Below are positions 7,175-26,699 of a stretch of DNA of 64,000 nucleotides, piece by piece. Positions within the stretch are counted from its first letter, which is position 1, and the number at the start of each line of letters is the position of its first letter. This DNA comes from an uncultured delta proteobacterium (GTDB lineage: Bacteria > Desulfobacterota > Desulfobulbia > Desulfobulbales > Desulfocapsaceae). The notes beneath the pieces were generated by a model. The model did no database searches and was not told where the DNA came from. It was given only the letters and a program-made list of their open reading frames with translations. A program made the translations under genes and the position numbers. The stretch spans positions 4,673 to 68,672 of the forward strand of contig CAVPXN010000005.1 in the NCBI GenBank assembly GCA_963709745.1, in the 5' to 3' direction.

Positions 7175-10100
7175 CTAAGGTTTTTGGAGACCAAGCTTGC
7201 GAATACGGGAGCGAAGCGTAGAGGGATTCATGGCAAGAATCTGCGCTGCACCTTTCTCTCCTTCGATACGCCATTCGGTAAACTGGAGCACTTCCTGAAT
7301 ATGATCCTTCTCAACCTCCTGCAGGCTCTTTAAGGTTGGACTCATTTTTTTAGACGCTGGGCTGGATAAGTCATCAGCCAAGCGCAGTTTGGGCCCGGAA
7401 GTATCGATTACCGCGCGCTCGATCACGTTTTCCAGTTCCCGAATATTACCGGGCCAGGAGTAAGCCTGGAGCTTTTGTACGACACTCTTGGGTATTTCTT
7501 CAATAGATTTGCCCAATCGTTTGGCAGCATTGTCAGCAAAAAAATGGACCAGCAGAGGGATATCTTCGACGCGTTGCCGCAGTGGGGGGACCGTGATTGG
7601 AAAGACATTCAGACGAAAGTAGAGATCTTCCCTGAAACGTCCCTGGAGAACTTCCTCTTCCAGGTTCCGATTAGTGGCCGCAATCACCCGTACATCGACT
7701 TTGATGGTACGGGAACTGCCAAGGCGTTCAAATTCGTGATCCTGGAGTACTCCCAATAGCTTTGCTTGCATTTCAAGCGGTAATTCCCCTATTTCATCTA
7801 AGAAAATGGAGGTGCCGTGAGCGATCTCAAAGCGTCCCAGTTGTCGCTCCTGGGCCCCTGTAAAGGCACCCCGTTCATGGCCGAACAACGTGCTTTCAAT
7901 CAAATCAGACGGCAGAGATGCACAATTGACTTTTACCAGGGTGCGATCCCTGCGCGGGCTTTTGTTGTGGATCGCCCTGGCAATCAATTCCTTACCGGTC
8001 CCACTTTCACCAAGTACCAAAACGTTGCTCTCGGTAGAGGCGATCTGTTCCACTTTATACAGCACATACTTGAGCGCAGCACTGTTGCCGATAATGTTAT
8101 CGAAATTGTGTTCAAGTTTGATTTCTGACTGCAAATAAGCAGTCTCCGCCTCAAGCTGGTCTTTTAATTGCGTGATCTCCGTATAGGCGCTAAGGAGGTC
8201 GATTTCTGACTCCTTACGGAGAGTAATATCACGATTGCTTGCGCGAAAACCCTGCAATGAACCCTGGTGATCAATAACGGGTTGGCAATTGTGTTCAAGC
8301 CAGCAGATTTGGCCATCCCGCCGCTCTATCCGATATTGAATCTGGCAAGATTTCAATTCATGACGGGAATCATGATAATGACTGTCCCACACACCCTGAT
8401 CTTCCTGGACGATAATATCTCTAAAAAGGGCGGGGTTATCCAGGAATTCTCTGGGCGAGTAGCCGCTGATGCGCTCACAGGAGGGAGAGACATATTCAAG
8501 GGACCCGTCAGCATTGAACCAGTACTCCCAGTCATGGGTGAAATTAGCGACCACCTGATATTTAGCTTCGGCCATGTTCAATGTTTTTTCATGATGTTTG
8601 CGTACTATTGCATTGCTCAGAATTTCAGCGATCAAACGACATTGCCGTACAAGTTCGTGCGGCCATTCTTGACGGTGTCGCAACATAGTGAGAGACAGTA
8701 CGCCCATAATTTTCTCTTCTGTCGACAAGGGTATCGCGGCCAATGAGAGAACGCCCAGGCCGCTCAGGAAATTACGGTCGTCTTCGGCTTCTACAGGCAG
8801 GTCGGCAAGATTGGCAAGGGTAAATATCTCCCCCTGTATCAATTTTTGATTGATCCACGGGAGCTGGTCGAATCTATATTCAGAAGGCAGTGTGACAGTA
8901 TCGATATGATTGTGTGAATACACATGATAAAACAGTTTATTTTCTTCGGATATTTCATAAACACTCACTCGATCTACATTGAGGGCATTACCTATTGATT
9001 CCAGTACATGTTTTATTTCTGTATCTATACGATGAGACGGCAGGTTGACGAAGCGGGCCGAGAGGGTGGACAACATTTTTTCAAAATCCAAACGTTCAGC
9101 GAGTTGCCACTGGGCCCTGCGACGTTGCCTTCGCGCCATCATTAAATAAAAGATCAGTCCGCTTTGGGCTAAAAGTACAAAAAAGGTGGCAACGATATAC
9201 CAGCGGTAGCTCTCCCAGAAGGAGTAGGTCTTGAACTGAACGATGCTGTCGGGTGGGAGTCGATCCTCTCGGATTCCGAAGCGTTTAAACTGCCGCCAAT
9301 CGAACTTATTAATTGTCGTGCCCTTACTTGACATGGGAATATTTGAGGGCTTTTCGCCTCTTAATATGCGTAAAGCAATCTCGCCGGCCCTGACCCCGCT
9401 CATTTCCATACTGAACATCCTCCCGCCGACGATACCGTCGCCGAAATAGGAATCCAGAATGCCATACACCGGCGCATTGGCTTCTTTCGCCAGGATGGAA
9501 GCAGCCTCCCGGGGAACAAAGGCCTTGCCGCTACCATCCTGCCAGAGGAGGGAAAAGAGGATCACCGTCTGCTCAGGCAGATTTTTGACTTTTTCCTCAA
9601 TTTCAGCAAACGGCAAACGAGTCAGATAAATGAAGTCGAATTGCTTGGTATACGGCTCAAATGCCTGGCGGAAACCTTTCTCTAAAAACAGCTCCTCACC
9701 GGATGCACCATTGACAACCGCAACGTGGCGTGTCTCCGGATGGATCTCGAGTGCCGTATTCAACAGCCCGGCGTAGTCGATATCCGCAAAGACACCGGTA
9801 ATCTCAGGGGGTAAACGTAGACTCTCTATGTTTGTCTGCGTGATGCCGGAAAAGACAACGGGGATGTTTTGAAAAAGATCATCGCGGTGAACAATAACAA
9901 ACTCAAGTGAGGCCAGGTCGTAGGTGATTATCAGATCGATCTTGTTCTTGGAAAACTTGTGGTGGTATAAATCAGTCAATAACTGGTTATGCTTCTGATC
10001 GGGATTGCGGTAAGTATCCATATATTCGATAAAATACTCAATATCAAATTCCGTGCCTGCCTCTAACCCCTGCTTGATGCCTTGTTCTATCATGGAGTAT

Positions 10101-10318
10101 GCCGGCAGATCACTCTGTGAAGCGAAAATAACAAGAACGCGTTTCTTCTCTTTCAGGTCATTTGCGTAAGTATTTGGAAGGAAAACAAAAAAGAACAAAG
10201 ATACTAGCAGAAGCACATGTACCATGGAGAAAAGGCTCAAGCTTGCTGGAGACTGCTGCTGCGCTCGACTATTTTTCACAGCACAGCGGACAAAACATGT
10301 AACTCTTTGTCTTGGCAT
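7175..10318 (-). CDS. Membrane-anchored sigma54-dependent activator (periplasmic SBP-like sensor, GAF, PAS, AAA+, Fis HTH); true start may be near 10225
   Basis: Two hydrophobic segments flank a periplasmic domain; GESGTGKE Walker A; GAFTGA; FLDE; FREDLYFRL; C-terminal GAAQILAMNPSTLRSR HTH. Confidence 0.92.
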   Translation of the reverse strand: MPRQRVTCFVRCAVKNSRAQQQSPASLSLFSMVHVLLLVSLFFFVFLPNTYANDLKEKKRVLVIFASQSDLPAYSMIEQGIKQGLEAGTEFDIEYFIEYMDTYRNPDQKHNQLLTDLYHHKFSKNKIDLIITYDLASLEFVIVHRDDLFQNIPVVFSGITQTNIESLRLPPEITGVFADIDYAGLLNTALEIHPETRHVAVVNGASGEELFLEKGFRQAFEPYTKQFDFIYLTRLPFAEIEEKVKNLPEQTVILFSLLWQDGSGKAFVPREAASILAKEANAPVYGILDSYFGDGIVGGRMFSMEMSGVRAGEIALRILRGEKPSNIPMSSKGTTINKFDWRQFKRFGIREDRLPPDSIVQFKTYSFWESYRWYIVATFFVLLAQSGLIFYLMMARRQRRRAQWQLAERLDFEKMLSTLSARFVNLPSHRIDTEIKHVLESIGNALNVDRVSVYEISEENKLFYHVYSHNHIDTVTLPSEYRFDQLPWINQKLIQGEIFTLANLADLPVEAEDDRNFLSGLGVLSLAAIPLSTEEKIMGVLSLTMLRHRQEWPHELVRQCRLIAEILSNAIVRKHHEKTLNMAEAKYQVVANFTHDWEYWFNADGSLEYVSPSCERISGYSPREFLDNPALFRDIIVQEDQGVWDSHYHDSRHELKSCQIQYRIERRDGQICWLEHNCQPVIDHQGSLQGFRASNRDITLRKESEIDLLSAYTEITQLKDQLEAETAYLQSEIKLEHNFDNIIGNSAALKYVLYKVEQIASTESNVLVLGESGTGKELIARAIHNKSPRRDRTLVKVNCASLPSDLIESTLFGHERGAFTGAQERQLGRFEIAHGTSIFLDEIGELPLEMQAKLLGVLQDHEFERLGSSRTIKVDVRVIAATNRNLEEEVLQGRFREDLYFRLNVFPITVPPLRQRVEDIPLLVHFFADNAAKRLGKSIEEIPKSVVQKLQAYSWPGNIRELENVIERAVIDTSGPKLRLADDLSSPASKKMSPTLKSLQEVEKDHIQEVLQFTEWRIEGEKGAAQILAMNPSTLRSRIRKLGLQKP

Positions 10319-10824
10319 TGCACACGTATTGGTTGTTCAGACCCTGACCACTGCCGAGGTCTTTGCATATATTGTATTCAAACCGGTTAGATAATCGTCC
10401 TATCTGTTTCGATTTGTATTTGTTTGCAGATAGAAAGACAGGAGAACAATTATAGAACTTACAGAGAAAGTATCGTGAATGATAGGAAAATTTCACCAAT
10501 ATTTATTCTCCTGCCTGTTCAGCATGCTGATTAAAAAAAAGACGGCTATTTTTGTAAAAAGCTCAGACTCTTTTTGACAGTAATTTAAAAAACGATAAGT
10601 GGGTCATGGTGGCTAGGTTAAGCATTTAAGACAAAAAGCAAATTACAACTCTTCCTGAATCTTTTAAAAATCACCAATTTTCTCACAATCATATTTTAAG
10701 AATTATTGCCGTAATAAATGTCCACTGGCAATCTCAACGATTTAAGCAAAGCTGCAAGTTAACACTATTCCTAATAGAGTAGATTTGCCTACTCCCTTGA
10801 AATTGTTCAGAAATGGAGTAACTG

Positions 10825-10884
10825 ATCTCGCACCATAACCAAAGAACACCTCTCAAAAGGTTAACAGAACTCCGGCGAGAGATA
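10825..10884 (+). repeat. 60-bp direct repeat A, copy 1 (copy 2 at 26496..26555)
   Basis: ATCTCGCA(C/A)CATAACCAAAGAACACCTCTCAAAAG...CCGGCGAGAGATA; 5 mismatches counted by eye. Confidence 0.85.
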
Positions 10885-10902
10885 ACTTCTGTTAACCTTT
10901 TC
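10856..10902. terminator. Strong hairpin, possibly a bidirectional terminator
   Basis: AAAAGGTTAACAGAA ... TTCTGTTAACCTTTT, perfect 15-bp inverted repeat. Confidence 0.5.
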
Positions 10903-11229
10903 TTTATATGACTGTTAGCTACCAGATTAAATTTGAATATGGGCGTGGATTGTGCTAGATCTGCCTTCCGTTCCGATGAGTATTGTGTCGATGTGATTGT
11001 TGTTGACTAATTTTTTCAGGTCTGAACATTCGGGGGCAGTTCTTGTTTTGGGGGGTATTATTAGGGGTATCTTGCGGTTTTATGAAATATAAAACATATA
11101 AATAACAGTAATATGACTTGTATGTTCAATGGACTGCATCGCCACCAAAATAACGTAAGTCCTTGACTTAGCTCATATAAAGTCCGAATTGTTGCCCCCT
11201 GGTACATGATTTTGTACATCGGAGAGTAC

Positions 11230-11658
11230 ATGATTCGGACTTCTTTTTTTCTTCAACGGCACCCTCAGAGCGGTACAATCTACTTTCGCAGGGCCATTCC
11301 AAAGCGACACCGGCAATCCTTCAATGGCAAGGCCGAGATAAAGAAATCACTGCAAACTTACGATAAAAACATTGCCACGATTCGCGCCACAATGTTGAAT
11401 GCCAGGCTCGAGAGCAAATTTAATCAGCTTGAAGTCGATATGGGAGACAATCCTTTCTTAAGTAAAATCACCATTGACGAGCTTGATGTAAAATCCGGCA
11501 CGGTCAAGAGCCTTGATATTGATTACGGCGGCGATGTGGAGAAAGAACTACAGGCCCTCCATGAGGTCAATAAATTGCTCAGTCAATCGGTAAGATACAT
11601 CTCTCACTGCTGGACAACAGTCCTCCCGTTCATATTATTCAAAAATTATCTCGGATAG
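11230..11658 (+). pseudogene. Truncated DUF6538-type integrase N-terminus
   Basis: IYFRRAIPK...EIKKSLQTYD...A pattern of DUF6538; SD GGAGAG at 11221; no tyrosine-recombinase catalytic domain follows. Confidence 0.65.
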
Positions 11659-11794
11659 CATTATTATCGAAAGATGCATACATCTTAATCAACCGGTAGT
11701 ACTGACTTTTGGAAACGTATTTTTCGATTAAATGATCCGATTGGGAAAACCGCAAGACTGATGACTCGGTCGACTAACGGTAAAGGAGGTGCAC

Positions 11795-12238
11795 ATGGTC
11801 CCATATGTAACTGTTCGATCTGTCCCCGGGGAACGATTCACTCAAAAAATTGAATCTGGAAAACACCAACTTTTAGCAGATAAACAAATATCCTTTGGTG
11901 GATCAGATCAGGGGCCTGGACCATACGCATTCCTGTTAGCTGCTCTTGGATCTTGAATATCAATAACACTCCGTATGTATGCGGAGAGGAAAGGAATCGC
12001 ATTACAAAGTGTTGAAGTGCGCCTCAGCCACGAAAAAGTACAGTTTAAGGATTGTGAGGAATGTGTAACGAAAAATGTTATGCTCGATGAGATTCAGACT
12101 CAAATTCATGTAAAAGGAAATCTTAATACAGTTCAGCGGGATCGGCTTTTAGAAATAGCAATTCGCTGTCCAGTTCACCAAACCCTTTCTTCAACTCTTA
12201 AAATTAGGTCAAAGTTGGTTTATGATAACAATTCGTAG
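11795..12238 (+). CDS. OsmC/YhfA-like protein with in-frame TGA (11954..11956) at the conserved Cys: candidate selenoprotein, alternatively a pseudogene
   Basis: SD AAAGGAGGT; GPGPYAFLLAALGS-TGA-ISITLRMYA matches the family motif LGxCTSxTLRMYA; second Cys motif RCPVHQTL intact. Confidence 0.7.
11969..11986 (+). promoter_or_regulatory. Candidate bacterial SECIS hairpin
   Basis: CTCCGTA-TGTA-TGCGGAG: 7-bp stem with one G-U pair starting 12 nt after the UGA; G-containing 4-nt loop 19 nt after the UGA. Confidence 0.55.
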
Positions 12239-12442
12239 GAAAGGGTCTAAATAGCACCCCAGAGAATTCGACGTCAACTTCCGCTGGCATGTTGTTATTG
12301 AGAAACACAACCAAATGTTCAGGCATTAACTGAAATTTGAGATTCAAATGCAATTTATAATCTTTCCACAACCACAATGCCGCGCGTAACATTTTGATCA
12401 TCAGTGACAGGGGTTAAAGCATTAACATACTAAGATTGTAAA

Positions 12443-13900
12443 TTACACGTCTCCTAAGGGCGAAGAGGGTGTTGACTGGACACGACTTCCAACTGCGATC
12501 ACCATAGCACCAACGATCAAAACTGTTGCAAATGCGAACGTGACTCGCATACCGATGGCAACTGCCTCATGATGCGCTGTTGTTGTGTTGCTTATCGCCG
12601 ATGCAAACGCGAACAGAGTACCCATAAGGGAAGCACCCGTAATGCGCCCTATATTGCGCGACAGGTTGAGCATACCTGAAATTACTCCTCGCTGGTCCGG
12701 GCTGACATCTGTCATGACGGCTGTGTTGTTGGCCGTCTGGAACAGCGAATAACCGCCAGTGATTATAGCGATTGGGACGATGTAGCCGAACATTCCAAGC
12801 CTTGCCGGTATTATGGAAAGAATGGAGGAACCGACTGCCATTCCGATAAGTCCGATGATGGTCATATGGTGGGCACCGAAACGGTCAGAAAAATACCCGG
12901 CTGGCACAGCAGTCAAGGCGGCGACAAGTGGTCCGACAGATAAGATAAACCCAACCATAACTGCATCAAGGCCAAGTGCAAGTGAGAGATAGAACGGGCC
13001 AACTACCAACGTTGTTGTTACCACCGTAGCGACGAGCGAGCTCATTGCGAGGCTCGCACTCAACAATTGATCTCGAAACACAGCCAATCGAATCAAAGGA
13101 ACTTTCACTCTCGACTCGGCAAGCACGAAAAGACCTACTCCGAAGGCAGCAGTCAACAGTAGAACTATATTGAGTAAACCGAAACTGCCGCGACCAATCG
13201 TCACAGCAAGTGCATAAGCCGCAAGAGTCAGAGCAAGCAGTACAGTGCCCACATTGTCGAATCCCGCCTGATCAAACTTCGGCGCACGGCGATCAACAGG
13301 CAGGTAGCGATACGCGAGAAGAAAAGTAAGTATTCCCAATGGTACGTTGACGAGGAATATTGCCCGCCAACCGATTCCTGCGATTAGTACGCCGCCGAGC
13401 GATGGACCAAGAGCGGTGCCTATAGCAGACATCGTTCCGAGGAGCCCCATGGCAGTGCCTGTCTTTACCTTCGGAACTGTCTCACCGACTATTGCCATGG
13501 TGAGGGCCATCATTATGGCCCCTCCCAGACCCTGCACCGCTCTGGCAGCAATCAGCAGCCAAAGTGTGGGAGCGACGCCGCACAATACTGAAGCAAACGT
13601 GAACAAGAAGATTCCAACTATTAGCAGCCTGCGGCGGCCAATGATATCACCTAACCGTCCGACGCTGACAATCAAGGTAGTGATGACGAGGAGATAAGCG
13701 ATCACAACCCACTGGACTTCCTGGAAGGAGGCGGCGAACGCCTGTGTCAATGTTGGCAGGGCAACATTGGCGATGCTGGTGTCGAGTGAAGACAATAACA
13801 TGGCTAATGAAAGACTGACGAGTGCCCACCGAGCAGAAACTTTCAGCTCGGCATATCCAGATGCTGCCACATCTTGTTGTGCAATAATTGTTTTCATCAT
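12443..13900 (-). CDS. MFS drug:H+ antiporter (DHA2, EmrB/QacA-like)
   Basis: LDTSIANVALP, GRLGDIIGRRR, GPSLGG motifs; many TM segments; start at MMK with SD GGAG. Confidence 0.92.
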   Translation of the reverse strand: MMKTIIAQQDVAASGYAELKVSARWALVSLSLAMLLSSLDTSIANVALPTLTQAFAASFQEVQWVVIAYLLVITTLIVSVGRLGDIIGRRRLLIVGIFLFTFASVLCGVAPTLWLLIAARAVQGLGGAIMMALTMAIVGETVPKVKTGTAMGLLGTMSAIGTALGPSLGGVLIAGIGWRAIFLVNVPLGILTFLLAYRYLPVDRRAPKFDQAGFDNVGTVLLALTLAAYALAVTIGRGSFGLLNIVLLLTAAFGVGLFVLAESRVKVPLIRLAVFRDQLLSASLAMSSLVATVVTTTLVVGPFYLSLALGLDAVMVGFILSVGPLVAALTAVPAGYFSDRFGAHHMTIIGLIGMAVGSSILSIIPARLGMFGYIVPIAIITGGYSLFQTANNTAVMTDVSPDQRGVISGMLNLSRNIGRITGASLMGTLFAFASAISNTTTAHHEAVAIGMRVTFAFATVLIVGAMVIAVGSRVQSTPSSPLGDV

Positions 13901-14055
13901 AAACTCCATTTTCTGTTGAACTCTATTTTTTACGACGCTCAAACCGAGCTGTCTGAAACAGAGTATAGTCTCTTGTGTGACACGGCGGAATACGCATCTT
14001 TTGCACTTTATTCGTGCATTTGACGCCATCTGTCGGATTGTGCTATAGTTAATGC

Positions 14056-14946
14056 ATGTCAACACCTGATCTCAACTTGCTAATTACCCTTGATGTACTG
14101 CTTGCGGAAAGCAGTGTTGCACGCGCAGCAAAACGATTGCAGCTAAGCCCTTCTGCTATGAGCAGGGCACTGGCACGATTGCGCGAGACGACTGGCGATC
14201 CGATTTTGGTTAGGGCTGGACGCGGTCTTGTCCCCACACCCCGAGCGCTTGAACTCCGCAACCGAGTAAGTCAGCTCGTTCAGGGCGCAAAAGAGGTTCT
14301 ACGTCCTGCCGAGAAGCTTAATCTTAAACAGCTCGTCCGAACATTCACGCTACGGACCAGTGAAGGTTTTGTGGAGAACTTTGGAGCGGCTCTTATTGTT
14401 CGCATTAGCAAGGAAGCTCCCGGCGTGCGGCTGCGCTTCGTGCAGAAGCCGAACAAAGACAGCACACCACTTCGCGACGGGACCGTTGATCTCGAAACTG
14501 GCGTTGTGGAGGAGACGACGAGTCCGGAGGTGCGTGCGCGGACTTTGTTCCGAGACAGATACATTGGCGTTGTGCGGATAGGGCACCCGCTGACTCGGAG
14601 TGAAATTACTCCTGCCCGTTATGCGACCGGCAGACATATCAGCGTCTCAAGGCACAGTCTAGATAAGGAACCGATAGATGAAGCCTTGGAGCCGTTTGGG
14701 GTGGAACGGGAAATCGTCGTCACTATTGTCGGTGGCTTCTCGACCGCGGTGGCGCTTTCTCGAAAATCCGATCTGATAGCCAGCGTTCCCGAGCGCCACA
14801 CGGGGAACCTGCGCATCGGAATGCATAGCTTCACCCTTCCATTCTCCGTACCGGAGTTCACGGTTTCAATGCTTTGGCACCCAAGGCTGGATGCTGACCT
14901 GGCGCATCGTTGGCTGCGCGAGTGCGTTCGGGACGCATGCGCCTGA
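14056..14946 (+). CDS. LysR-family regulator, divergent from the MFS gene
   Basis: DLNLL...SVARAAKRLQLSPSAMSRALARLR HTH plus substrate-binding domain. Confidence 0.95.
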   Translation: MSTPDLNLLITLDVLLAESSVARAAKRLQLSPSAMSRALARLRETTGDPILVRAGRGLVPTPRALELRNRVSQLVQGAKEVLRPAEKLNLKQLVRTFTLRTSEGFVENFGAALIVRISKEAPGVRLRFVQKPNKDSTPLRDGTVDLETGVVEETTSPEVRARTLFRDRYIGVVRIGHPLTRSEITPARYATGRHISVSRHSLDKEPIDEALEPFGVEREIVVTIVGGFSTAVALSRKSDLIASVPERHTGNLRIGMHSFTLPFSVPEFTVSMLWHPRLDADLAHRWLRECVRDACA

Positions 14947-15369: not shown

Positions 15370-15554
15370 GGGCGGCTCCCACAGAACTCCACATTAACAT
15401 TGCCGTTTCGAAGGTAAGATACCTTCGTCAATTATCAGAGTTGATAGATCTACTGTGCAGGTCCTGAAGAAGTTGTCCTATCAACATAAATTGGCCGTTT
15501 TTGCCATTCAAAAACCAATATAACCCTGGCAACAAAAAACAAAATTTGAATCCC

Positions 15555-15625
15555 AGATCTTTCCAGATAATCCACCGAGACATTTGCTCCATTTCTGACC
15601 ACCGTCGGCGTTGATACTACTTTCC
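15555..15625 (+). repeat. 71-bp direct repeat B, copy 1 (copy 2 at 26620..26690)
   Basis: AGATCTTTCCAGA...GAGACATTTGCTCCATTTCTGACCA(C/T)CGTCGGCGTTGATACTACTTTCC; 3 mismatches counted by eye. Confidence 0.9.
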
Positions 15626-16098
15626 AATTTTTCGTCTAACGACTCCGAACAAGTCTCAGTTACTGTCAACCACGTTGCCTAACGCTTCTGTCGAAGTGAC
15701 CAACAAATACTTTTTGGAACAATCTGGGACCGGCGACAAGTTAAAAAGTGATAGGCATTTGACCTTTTGCAAACCAGAAATTCACAGTAGTTGTCTCAAC
15801 TCAACTTGAAGCGTTGATAGAATATTAAGACCTTCGAGGTGGCAATATTAACCGCACAACTTGAATCGGATTATGAACATATACCTTGTATTTGTTCTCT
15901 GAGGTGCTTTTTTACCAAAAAAGGTCAGGAAAAAATTGTGATAAGACAGCGAATCACCCATATCTAATCGAAATACCCACCCATATGAACCCAACAATTA
16001 TCGTTCTACGATGCCGTTTAGGAAAACGGAGTTCAAAAGAAATTGATCAAGAAGACTCACCTGATTGAACCTCGAACAGTTAATTTTATGTAATTTTA

Positions 16099-26061: not shown

Positions 26062-26495
26062 GTGGCCCCGTTTTTGTGGAGAGTAAAGATTTTTTCTGGC
26101 AATCTTCAATTTAATACCATACCCGTCAGGTGAACCTTCCTGATAGTGTCGACCTACTTGTTTCAATTGAATTGTCCAAAAATGGAGCAACTGTAAAGTA
26201 GAGCTTACCAAAGTTATGTTGCGAGTTGAACTATCTGCCTGAAATTATTTCGCTTTTCAAGCTATTTACGGAATGTATTTTTTGTTAATTATTTCAATGT
26301 TTTATGTTGTTAATGGTAATGATTCCTCTTCTCCAAGCAACATAACTTTTGAGCTATTTCTTACCTCCCCGTCAGCCTCTTGCGAGGAAGGAAAAGAAGG
26401 ACATCCAAAGAAAAAGTAGGAAGAAGAGATAAATACCTACAACTACAAAAGGAGGGAGGAAAAGCAAACAGAGAAGAAAAGACACAGCAAAACTA

Positions 26496-26555
26496 ATCTC
26501 GCAACATAACCAAAGAACACCTCTCAAAAGTGCAACAGAACCCCGGCGAGAGATA
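26496..26555 (+). repeat. Direct repeat A, copy 2
   Basis: See 10825..10884. Confidence 0.85.
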
Positions 26556-26619
26556 TCTACTGAAGTTCTGGTTCTCATGAGCCCAAATACCTATCAACTT
26601 TTATTGTGCCGCCCATCCG

Positions 26620-26690
26620 AGATCTTTCCAGAAAATCAACCGAGACATTTGCTCCATTTCTGACCATCGTCGGCGTTGATACTACTTTCC
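26620..26690 (+). repeat. Direct repeat B, copy 2
   Basis: See 15555..15625. Confidence 0.9.
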
Positions 26691-26699
26691 TATCAACCG

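Follow-up and report, generated by a model that had tools for sequence, protein, structure and literature searches.

Within a 64,000-nucleotide stretch of DNA from an uncultured delta proteobacterium (here termed the window, meaning that stretch at its full length), the region 11795-12238 is interpreted from sequence, with a probability of roughly 0.9, as one real gene for a selenoprotein of 147 residues belonging to the OsmC superfamily. Selenocysteine (Sec) would occupy residue 54 (U54), the position of the first conserved Cys of the superfamily. This reading, put forward as a candidate in an earlier note on the same DNA, is supported by the conservation of the in-frame TGA, purifying selection on both halves of the gene, a hairpin of the bacterial SECIS type and the Sec machinery of the host. 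The analysis shows the reading frame, a conserved TGA with conservation on either side of it, the hairpin, the predicted fold and the Sec machinery of the host. Selenoproteins of the OsmC superfamily that have Sec in place of the first Cys are already known, and the protein is of this kind, but it belongs to a separate clade which is missed by the curated family model and by gene callers.

Reading frame, predicted fold and SECIS-type hairpin

The frame opened by the ATG at 11795 comprises 147 codons, contains the TGA of codon 54 as its sole in-frame stop and terminates with TAG at 12236-12238 (Table 1). Codon 54 is embedded in LGS-U-ISITLRMYAERK, and the second conserved Cys, C125, is part of RCPVH. 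The Shine-Dalgarno (SD) sequence and ATG, the 147-codon frame with its lone TGA and the intact partner Cys had all been described in the earlier note and were confirmed by direct reading and translation, as was, by folding, the 7-bp hairpin with UGUA loop located 12 nt 3' of the UGA. Mechanical ORF listing indeed misses the full gene, splitting it into 11789-11956 (55 aa) and 11975-12238 (87 aa) and reporting nothing longer; no separate SD accompanies the 87-aa ORF at 11975. According to the alignments, all clade-invariant residues are present in the window copy. Promoter-like sites 5' of the gene (11611-11667) constitute weak evidence.

Table 1. Coordinates of the OsmC-family gene, its elements and adjoining features in the window
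Feature	Position	Strand	Basis or remark
Shine-Dalgarno AAGGAGG	11783..11789	+	Read off the sequence; 5 nt 5' of ATG
Probable complete OsmC-family selenoprotein CDS, U54	11795..12238	+	Translation: 147 codons, then TAG
UGA = codon 54, candidate Sec, first conserved Cys of the OsmC superfamily	11954..11956	+	Aligned homologues
SECIS-type hairpin	11969..11986	+	Stems 11969-11975 / 11980-11986, loop UGUA 11976-11979; UGA-to-loop spacing 19 nt
C87-E-E-C90, within D-C-x-x-C motif	12053..12064	+	Alignments of the clade
C125 codon (RCPVH), second conserved Cys, presumed resolving Cys	12167..12169	+	Invariant in three alignments
87-aa ORF, called by gene callers in place of the full gene	11975..12238	+	ORF list
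150-aa ORF, DUF6538 N-terminal domain only	11206..11658	+	PF20172, E=3.6e-14
Stretch common with closest congener G001, 84.7% DNA identity	11658..12314	+	blastn of 9500-14500 vs L176

With Cys in place of U54, the product matches the OsmC domain (PF02566; E=2.4e-17, 63.6 bits vs a gathering cut-off of 27.5), residues 36-138 spanning model positions 1-98 of 100. The AlphaFold model of the read-through product (pLDDT 91.1, pTM 0.81) retrieved OsmC/Ohr proteins only among the top 50 PDB fold matches of Foldseek (50 out of 50). In this predicted model, U54 resides within a long central helix (residues 43-66) and C125 just ahead of the last helix, and the 87-aa product alone would miss three strands of the domain and the greater part of its active-site helix. 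A first PDB profile search, the alignment rows of which were mostly fragments, was uninformative and was repeated with a full-length alignment. The resulting profile alignment places U54 and C125 upon the Cys pair of 9wo1 and 2pn2, and U54 also upon the first conserved Cys of 1vla and 3cje. The D-C-x-x-C motif (C87 and C90; window 12050-12064) is nearly invariant and specific to the clade; C87 and C90 might, together with H79, C125 and H128, form a metal site or a second redox site.

Insertion of Sec, catalytic cycle and substrate are inferred as follows. As in the well-established scheme of bacterial Sec decoding, the ribosome would encounter UGA54 with the hairpin 12 nt downstream serving as SECIS, which would recruit SelB-GTP carrying Sec-tRNA(Sec); upon insertion of Sec, the ribosome would proceed as far as the TAG (12236). 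U54, placed where the OsmC/Ohr fold has its first conserved Cys, would hold the peroxidatic position. Its oxidation would give a selenenic acid, which C125 would resolve to a selenenylsulfide, and a thiol or lipoyl donor would then reduce U54 again. By homology, the U54 protein is most likely a selenol-based hydroperoxide or thiol-redox enzyme. A peroxidase activity is extrapolated from the two-Cys Ohr/OsmC peroxidases, whose mechanism of hydroperoxide reduction is summarised in PMC5157978.

The hairpin (CUCCGUA-UGUA-UGCGGAG) is formed by 7 pairs, including one U-G, and has a dG of -9.3 kcal/mol. The bacterial SECIS model (consensus criteria quoted in PMC13188914) comprises a loop of 3-9 nt, an upper stem of 4-16 bp, a G within the first two loop positions, a UGA-to-loop distance of 16-37 nt and an MFE of -7.5 or lower. 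The window hairpin agrees with this model on every count (4-nt loop UGUA, 7-bp stem, 19-nt spacing, MFE -9.3), the G at loop position 2 being followed by U at position 3. In a shuffle test of the window hairpin alone, stability was not significant (z = -1.2; 26 of 200 shuffles fold equally well), and the weight of the hairpin stems from comparison with homologues rather than from the window sequence by itself. An Rfam scan of 11600-12400 yielded one chance miRNA match only (E=0.98).

In all TGA forms, a hairpin of 6-7 bp occurs at an identical offset, and the approximately 140 Cys forms are devoid of it with the sole exception of L197, which is nested in the Sec clade. Mean dG of the respective 18-mer is about -8.4 kcal/mol for the first 14 TGA forms vs -2.3 for 139 Cys forms, and within the subset sharing the identical peptide LRMYAE -8.1 (Sec) vs -2.9 kcal/mol (Cys; p=2.6e-5), these statistics ignoring kinship among homologues and thereby overstating independence. 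The contrast holds for genes with GC contents between 0.40 and 0.67. LRMYAE can be encoded in 576 synonymous ways, only 6% of which reach -5.9 or better. This rarity and the LRMYAE-matched contrast argue that the hairpin did not arise as a side effect of the encoded peptide, a possibility that the earlier note had considered damaging to its proposal and that is contradicted by Cys homologues outside the clade, which have the same peptide and lack the hairpin. Strict column-wise covariation analysis of an 18-sequence hairpin alignment revealed 0 double-sided compensatory pairs, with 25 of 500 shuffles pairing equally well; the stem in the main clade is mostly conserved in sequence and displays one-sided G-U wobble changes only. 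In the three Gemmatimonadales-type forms, a hairpin occurs at the same place with another stem (UCGCGC-UGUAC-GCGCGA), a 5-nt loop and a register shifted by one.

TGA and Cys homologues and the Sec machinery of the host

Overall, 22 homologues from at least 3 phyla (57-88% identity) contain TGA at the position aligned with codon 54, and approximately 140 others contain TGC or TGT. The TGA forms were collected by scanning contigs of genomes and metagenomes, then congeners and then four contigs bearing fragments. Genome contigs contributed L015 and L016 (Desulfobacterales), L017 and L018 (Acidobacteriota) and L081 (Gemmatimonadales), and metagenome contigs 9 more; L081 forms a trio with two metagenome relatives. 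Among the congeners, the TGA form was detected in G001, G012 and G019 (two copies), and four further TGA loci were found behind truncated database proteins. All 19 TGA forms checked have an ATG 52-57 codons 5' of the TGA, most of them preceded by an SD of the GGAG/GGAGG type. Among close homologues, TGA rather than Cys thus prevails, as the selenoprotein proposal had implied: the 22 TGA forms face one nested Cys form (L197). Between the window gene and that of G001 (86% identical), dN/dS amounts to 0.10 on the N-terminal and 0.16 on the C-terminal side of the TGA; for distant pairs, pN ranges from 0.12 to 0.25 with pS being saturated. The low dN/dS on each side indicates that both halves are translated in one frame.

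Phylogenetic analysis grouped 16 Sec rows and 1 Cys row (L197) into one clade (SH-aLRT 97). The window gene belongs to this monophyletic Sec clade, which is distinct from the published family NF041052. The Gemmatimonadales-type forms (L081, L149 and L152) constitute a second Sec cluster apart from the main Sec clade, which together with their deviating hairpin suggests an independent or long-diverged Sec form. L197, located within the Sec clade, has the Cys codon TGT (L197:760-762) and keeps the hairpin CUUCGCA-UGUA-UGCGGAG (-7.3 kcal/mol); to judge from its sequence, Sec seems to have been exchanged for Cys recently, the SECIS persisting as a fossil. As a separate observation, genes for alpha/beta-hydrolases adjoin Sec-form OsmC genes in L193:1050-1844 (-) as well as in L195 and L196:3093-4037 (-). 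A functional link of hydrolase and OsmC is possible in view of these neighbours and of 9wo1, the sole close solved structure, in which the OsmC clade is C-terminal.

A search of 5.8 billion proteins retrieved 162 relatives. When the best 120 of these 162 were classified, 62 proved to be C-terminal fragments of 82-97 aa which start 1-7 codons past the position of codon 54 and share 61-86% identity with the window protein, and 58 were full-length Cys relatives with 44-65% identity. At TGA loci, gene callers predict an ORF of 53 aa (or 68 aa) and a separate one of 82-88 aa. JGI record P0003, representing the same gene as L177, displays W at the Sec codon and was presumably called under a code with TGA as Trp. 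The best NCBIfam match of the window protein is NF041052 ('OsmC-related (seleno)protein') with 58.1 bits vs a cut-off of 95; ten Sec-form relatives score 53.8-75.9 bits and the Sargasso sequence of the published family 157.4 bits. These scores of the window protein and its relatives, remaining below the cut-off, explain why 62 of the best 120 matches are fragments. For members of the clade, protein databases consequently lose the N-terminal catalytic half including the putative Sec residue. A clade-specific model with Sec would repair dozens of records which NF041052 does not reach. The main value of the finding is in annotation, and knowledge of the mechanism of Sec insertion is unchanged by it.

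The host genome (4.65 Mb, 99% complete) encodes selB, two copies of selA and two copies of Sec-type selD, all scoring above curated cut-offs, and tRNA-Sec with anticodon UCA is located at 90632-90729 of host contig C4. All components of the Sec machinery on which the earlier proposal depends (selA, selB, selD and tRNA-Sec) are accordingly present. Each selD copy has an in-frame TGA of its own, i.e., both are selenoproteins themselves, and their hairpins (13-14 nt past the UGA, 7-8-bp stems, G-first loops) resemble that of the OsmC gene in geometry. The selA genes reside on contigs C2/C18 and the selD genes on C11/C12, the second selA being situated at a contig end. TGA is an ordinary stop in the host, where it terminates 531 of the 1330 long open frames. 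Of 9 genomes with the TGA form, 8 possess selB, vs 6 of 17 with the Cys form (Fisher p=0.012).

Genomic context and alternative readings

Beyond the module in common with the closest congener (Table 1), both flanks of the gene are unrelated to G001. Inverted or direct repeats bounding this 0.66-kb module were searched for, yielding only short matches at chance level. Upstream, the 150-aa ORF with the DUF6538 domain ends at 11658, exactly where homology to the congener OsmC module starts. No catalytic domain was detected in this ORF by Pfam. DUF6538 is a domain linked to integrases, and the ORF is probably an integrase relic. The GC content of the OsmC gene is 0.40 vs 0.50 for the genome, and the flanking genes for a sigma-54 activator, an MFS transporter and a LysR regulator range from 0.48 to 0.56; the low-GC patch around the gene extends from 10319 to 12400. 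In a genus sample of 25 genomes (host and 24 congeners), the TGA form was found in the host and three others only, and in these three (G001, G012 and G019) MFS and OsmC genes are on different contigs, i.e., synteny with the adjacent MFS gene is not conserved. Two repeat pairs were detected (10820-10891 / 26491-26562, 89% identical; 15550-15628 / 26615-26693, 94% identical), the right-hand members of which are adjacent to each other, and the left-hand members of which are separated by 4.7 kb containing the integrase relic and the OsmC, MFS and LysR genes.

Low GC content, integrase relic, patchy occurrence, differing context and flanking repeats suggest that the gene is accessory and was acquired horizontally; it appears to move as a single-gene module. 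The assignment of the gene to mobile cargo in the earlier note is partly sustained by these same features, and no active mobile element could be defined. The case illustrates how a selenoprotein gene can act as horizontally moving DNA that is functional only in recipients already having Sec machinery.

The same surroundings bear on the question whether the window copy is silent or decaying cargo of a real selenoprotein family, unexpressed or being lost like its neighbours. The integrase relic directly 5', the low GC content of 0.40 within its low-GC patch and the lack of the gene in most genomes of the genus agree with such a fate, as does congener G019, the second copy of which (L180, contig 27) has clearly decayed, beginning near residue 43 and ending just past RCP while retaining TGA and hairpin. 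In the window copy, however, SD, ATG, TGA, hairpin, C125 and stop are all intact, every clade-invariant residue is kept, dN/dS vs G001 is as low as 0.10-0.16 and, as a weaker indication, promoter-like sites are present. Decay or silence is, therefore, considered improbable, even though present activity of a copy located among relics in low-GC DNA is not guaranteed.

Less probable still is a pseudogene in which a single TGY-to-TGA nonsense mutation has struck the catalytic Cys and the hairpin results by chance from the codons for LRMYAE. Only one base change would be required, the hairpin on its own is unremarkable and the nested Cys form L197 has the same hairpin; but the same TGA recurs in 22 homologues representing three or more phyla, the two halves are conserved and under purifying selection, same-peptide Cys forms outside the clade are without hairpin, and the nesting of L197 fits a Sec-to-Cys switch that retained the old hairpin. 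Equally slight weight is given to decoding of the UGA without the Sec pathway, be it by a reassigned code or by near-cognate read-through with Trp or Cys, and to the production of two small proteins of 53 and 87 aa. The W in JGI record P0003 would accord with the former and the two ORFs reported by gene callers with the latter, whereas TGA is a normal stop of the host and also ends several of the homologous genes, the Sec machinery of the host is complete, and the 87-aa product, the ORF of which has no SD, would according to the predicted model fall short of the complete domain, as described above. A single, Sec-containing OsmC-family protein remains the preferred reading of 11795-12238.

Relation to known OsmC-like proteins

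The protein would enlarge the selenoproteome of the Desulfobacterales-like host by a further redox enzyme of the peroxidase type. The nested Cys revertant still equipped with its hairpin also makes the clade a compact case for Cys/Sec exchange. By a narrow margin of confidence, the clade is considered a second Sec lineage of the OsmC superfamily (G-x-U-x-S-x-T ... D-C-x-x-C ... R-C-P-V-H) which is not yet listed separately and apparently arose independently of the UxxT family. In such a lineage, well-supported branches would force at least 2 Cys/Sec switches, among them one probable Sec-to-Cys reversal keeping the SECIS, and the single gene would have spread over Desulfobacterota, Acidobacteriota and Gemmatimonadota, while being systematically split by annotation pipelines.

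OsmC-like selenoproteins with the motif UxxT were described from the Sargasso Sea in 2005 (Zhang, Fomenko and Gladyshev, PMC1088965) and in the GOS survey of 2008 (PMC2398784), and just one OsmC-like form appears in the list of a 2026 review. The statement in the earlier note that Sec-containing OsmC-like proteins had been reported is correct (PMC1088965), but pertains to another clade, NF041052. Membership of the window protein in NF041052 was rejected on account of its score (58.1 bits < 95) and differing motifs; none of 201 genomes of the class searched with this model reached the cut-off. Three 'OsmC-like' selenoproteins were recorded in a study of Olavius symbionts, and earlier surveys such as this one may have counted members of the window clade under that name.

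The published family and the window protein both belong to the PF02566 superfamily, have a second Cys near the C-terminus and share the column of Sec, U54 aligning with U40 of AACY01145085 (BLASTP). The Sargasso SECIS likewise extends over the x-R-x-Y-A codons, approximately 15 nt past the UGA, but its stem differs (GAAGCG-GUA-CGCUUC). Identity of the window protein with the published Sargasso sequence is approximately 25% across 61 residues only. The motifs of the published family are UxxT, G-F-U-L-L-T and G-C-F-A-E, those of the window clade G-[AST]-U-x-S-x-T (UxxxT; U-I-S-I-T in the window), D-C-x-x-C and R-C-P-V-H. Cys members of the same OsmC clade are considerably closer (44-65% identity; common motifs LRMYA, DCxxC and CPVH) and differ in having TGC or TGT for TGA and in the absence of the hairpin. 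In PDB entry 9wo1 ('Osmotically inducible protein C', 400 aa; profile match E=3e-52), the OsmC of this clade forms the C-terminal domain, preceded by approximately 260 N-terminal residues that the window protein does not have. The Ohr/OsmC thiol peroxidases (E. coli OsmC, Pseudomonas and Xylella Ohr), finally, have the same fold (Foldseek probability 1.00, TM 0.57-0.75) and the same two conserved Cys positions at an identity of 13-23%, with the candidate Sec of the window protein replacing their peroxidatic Cys.
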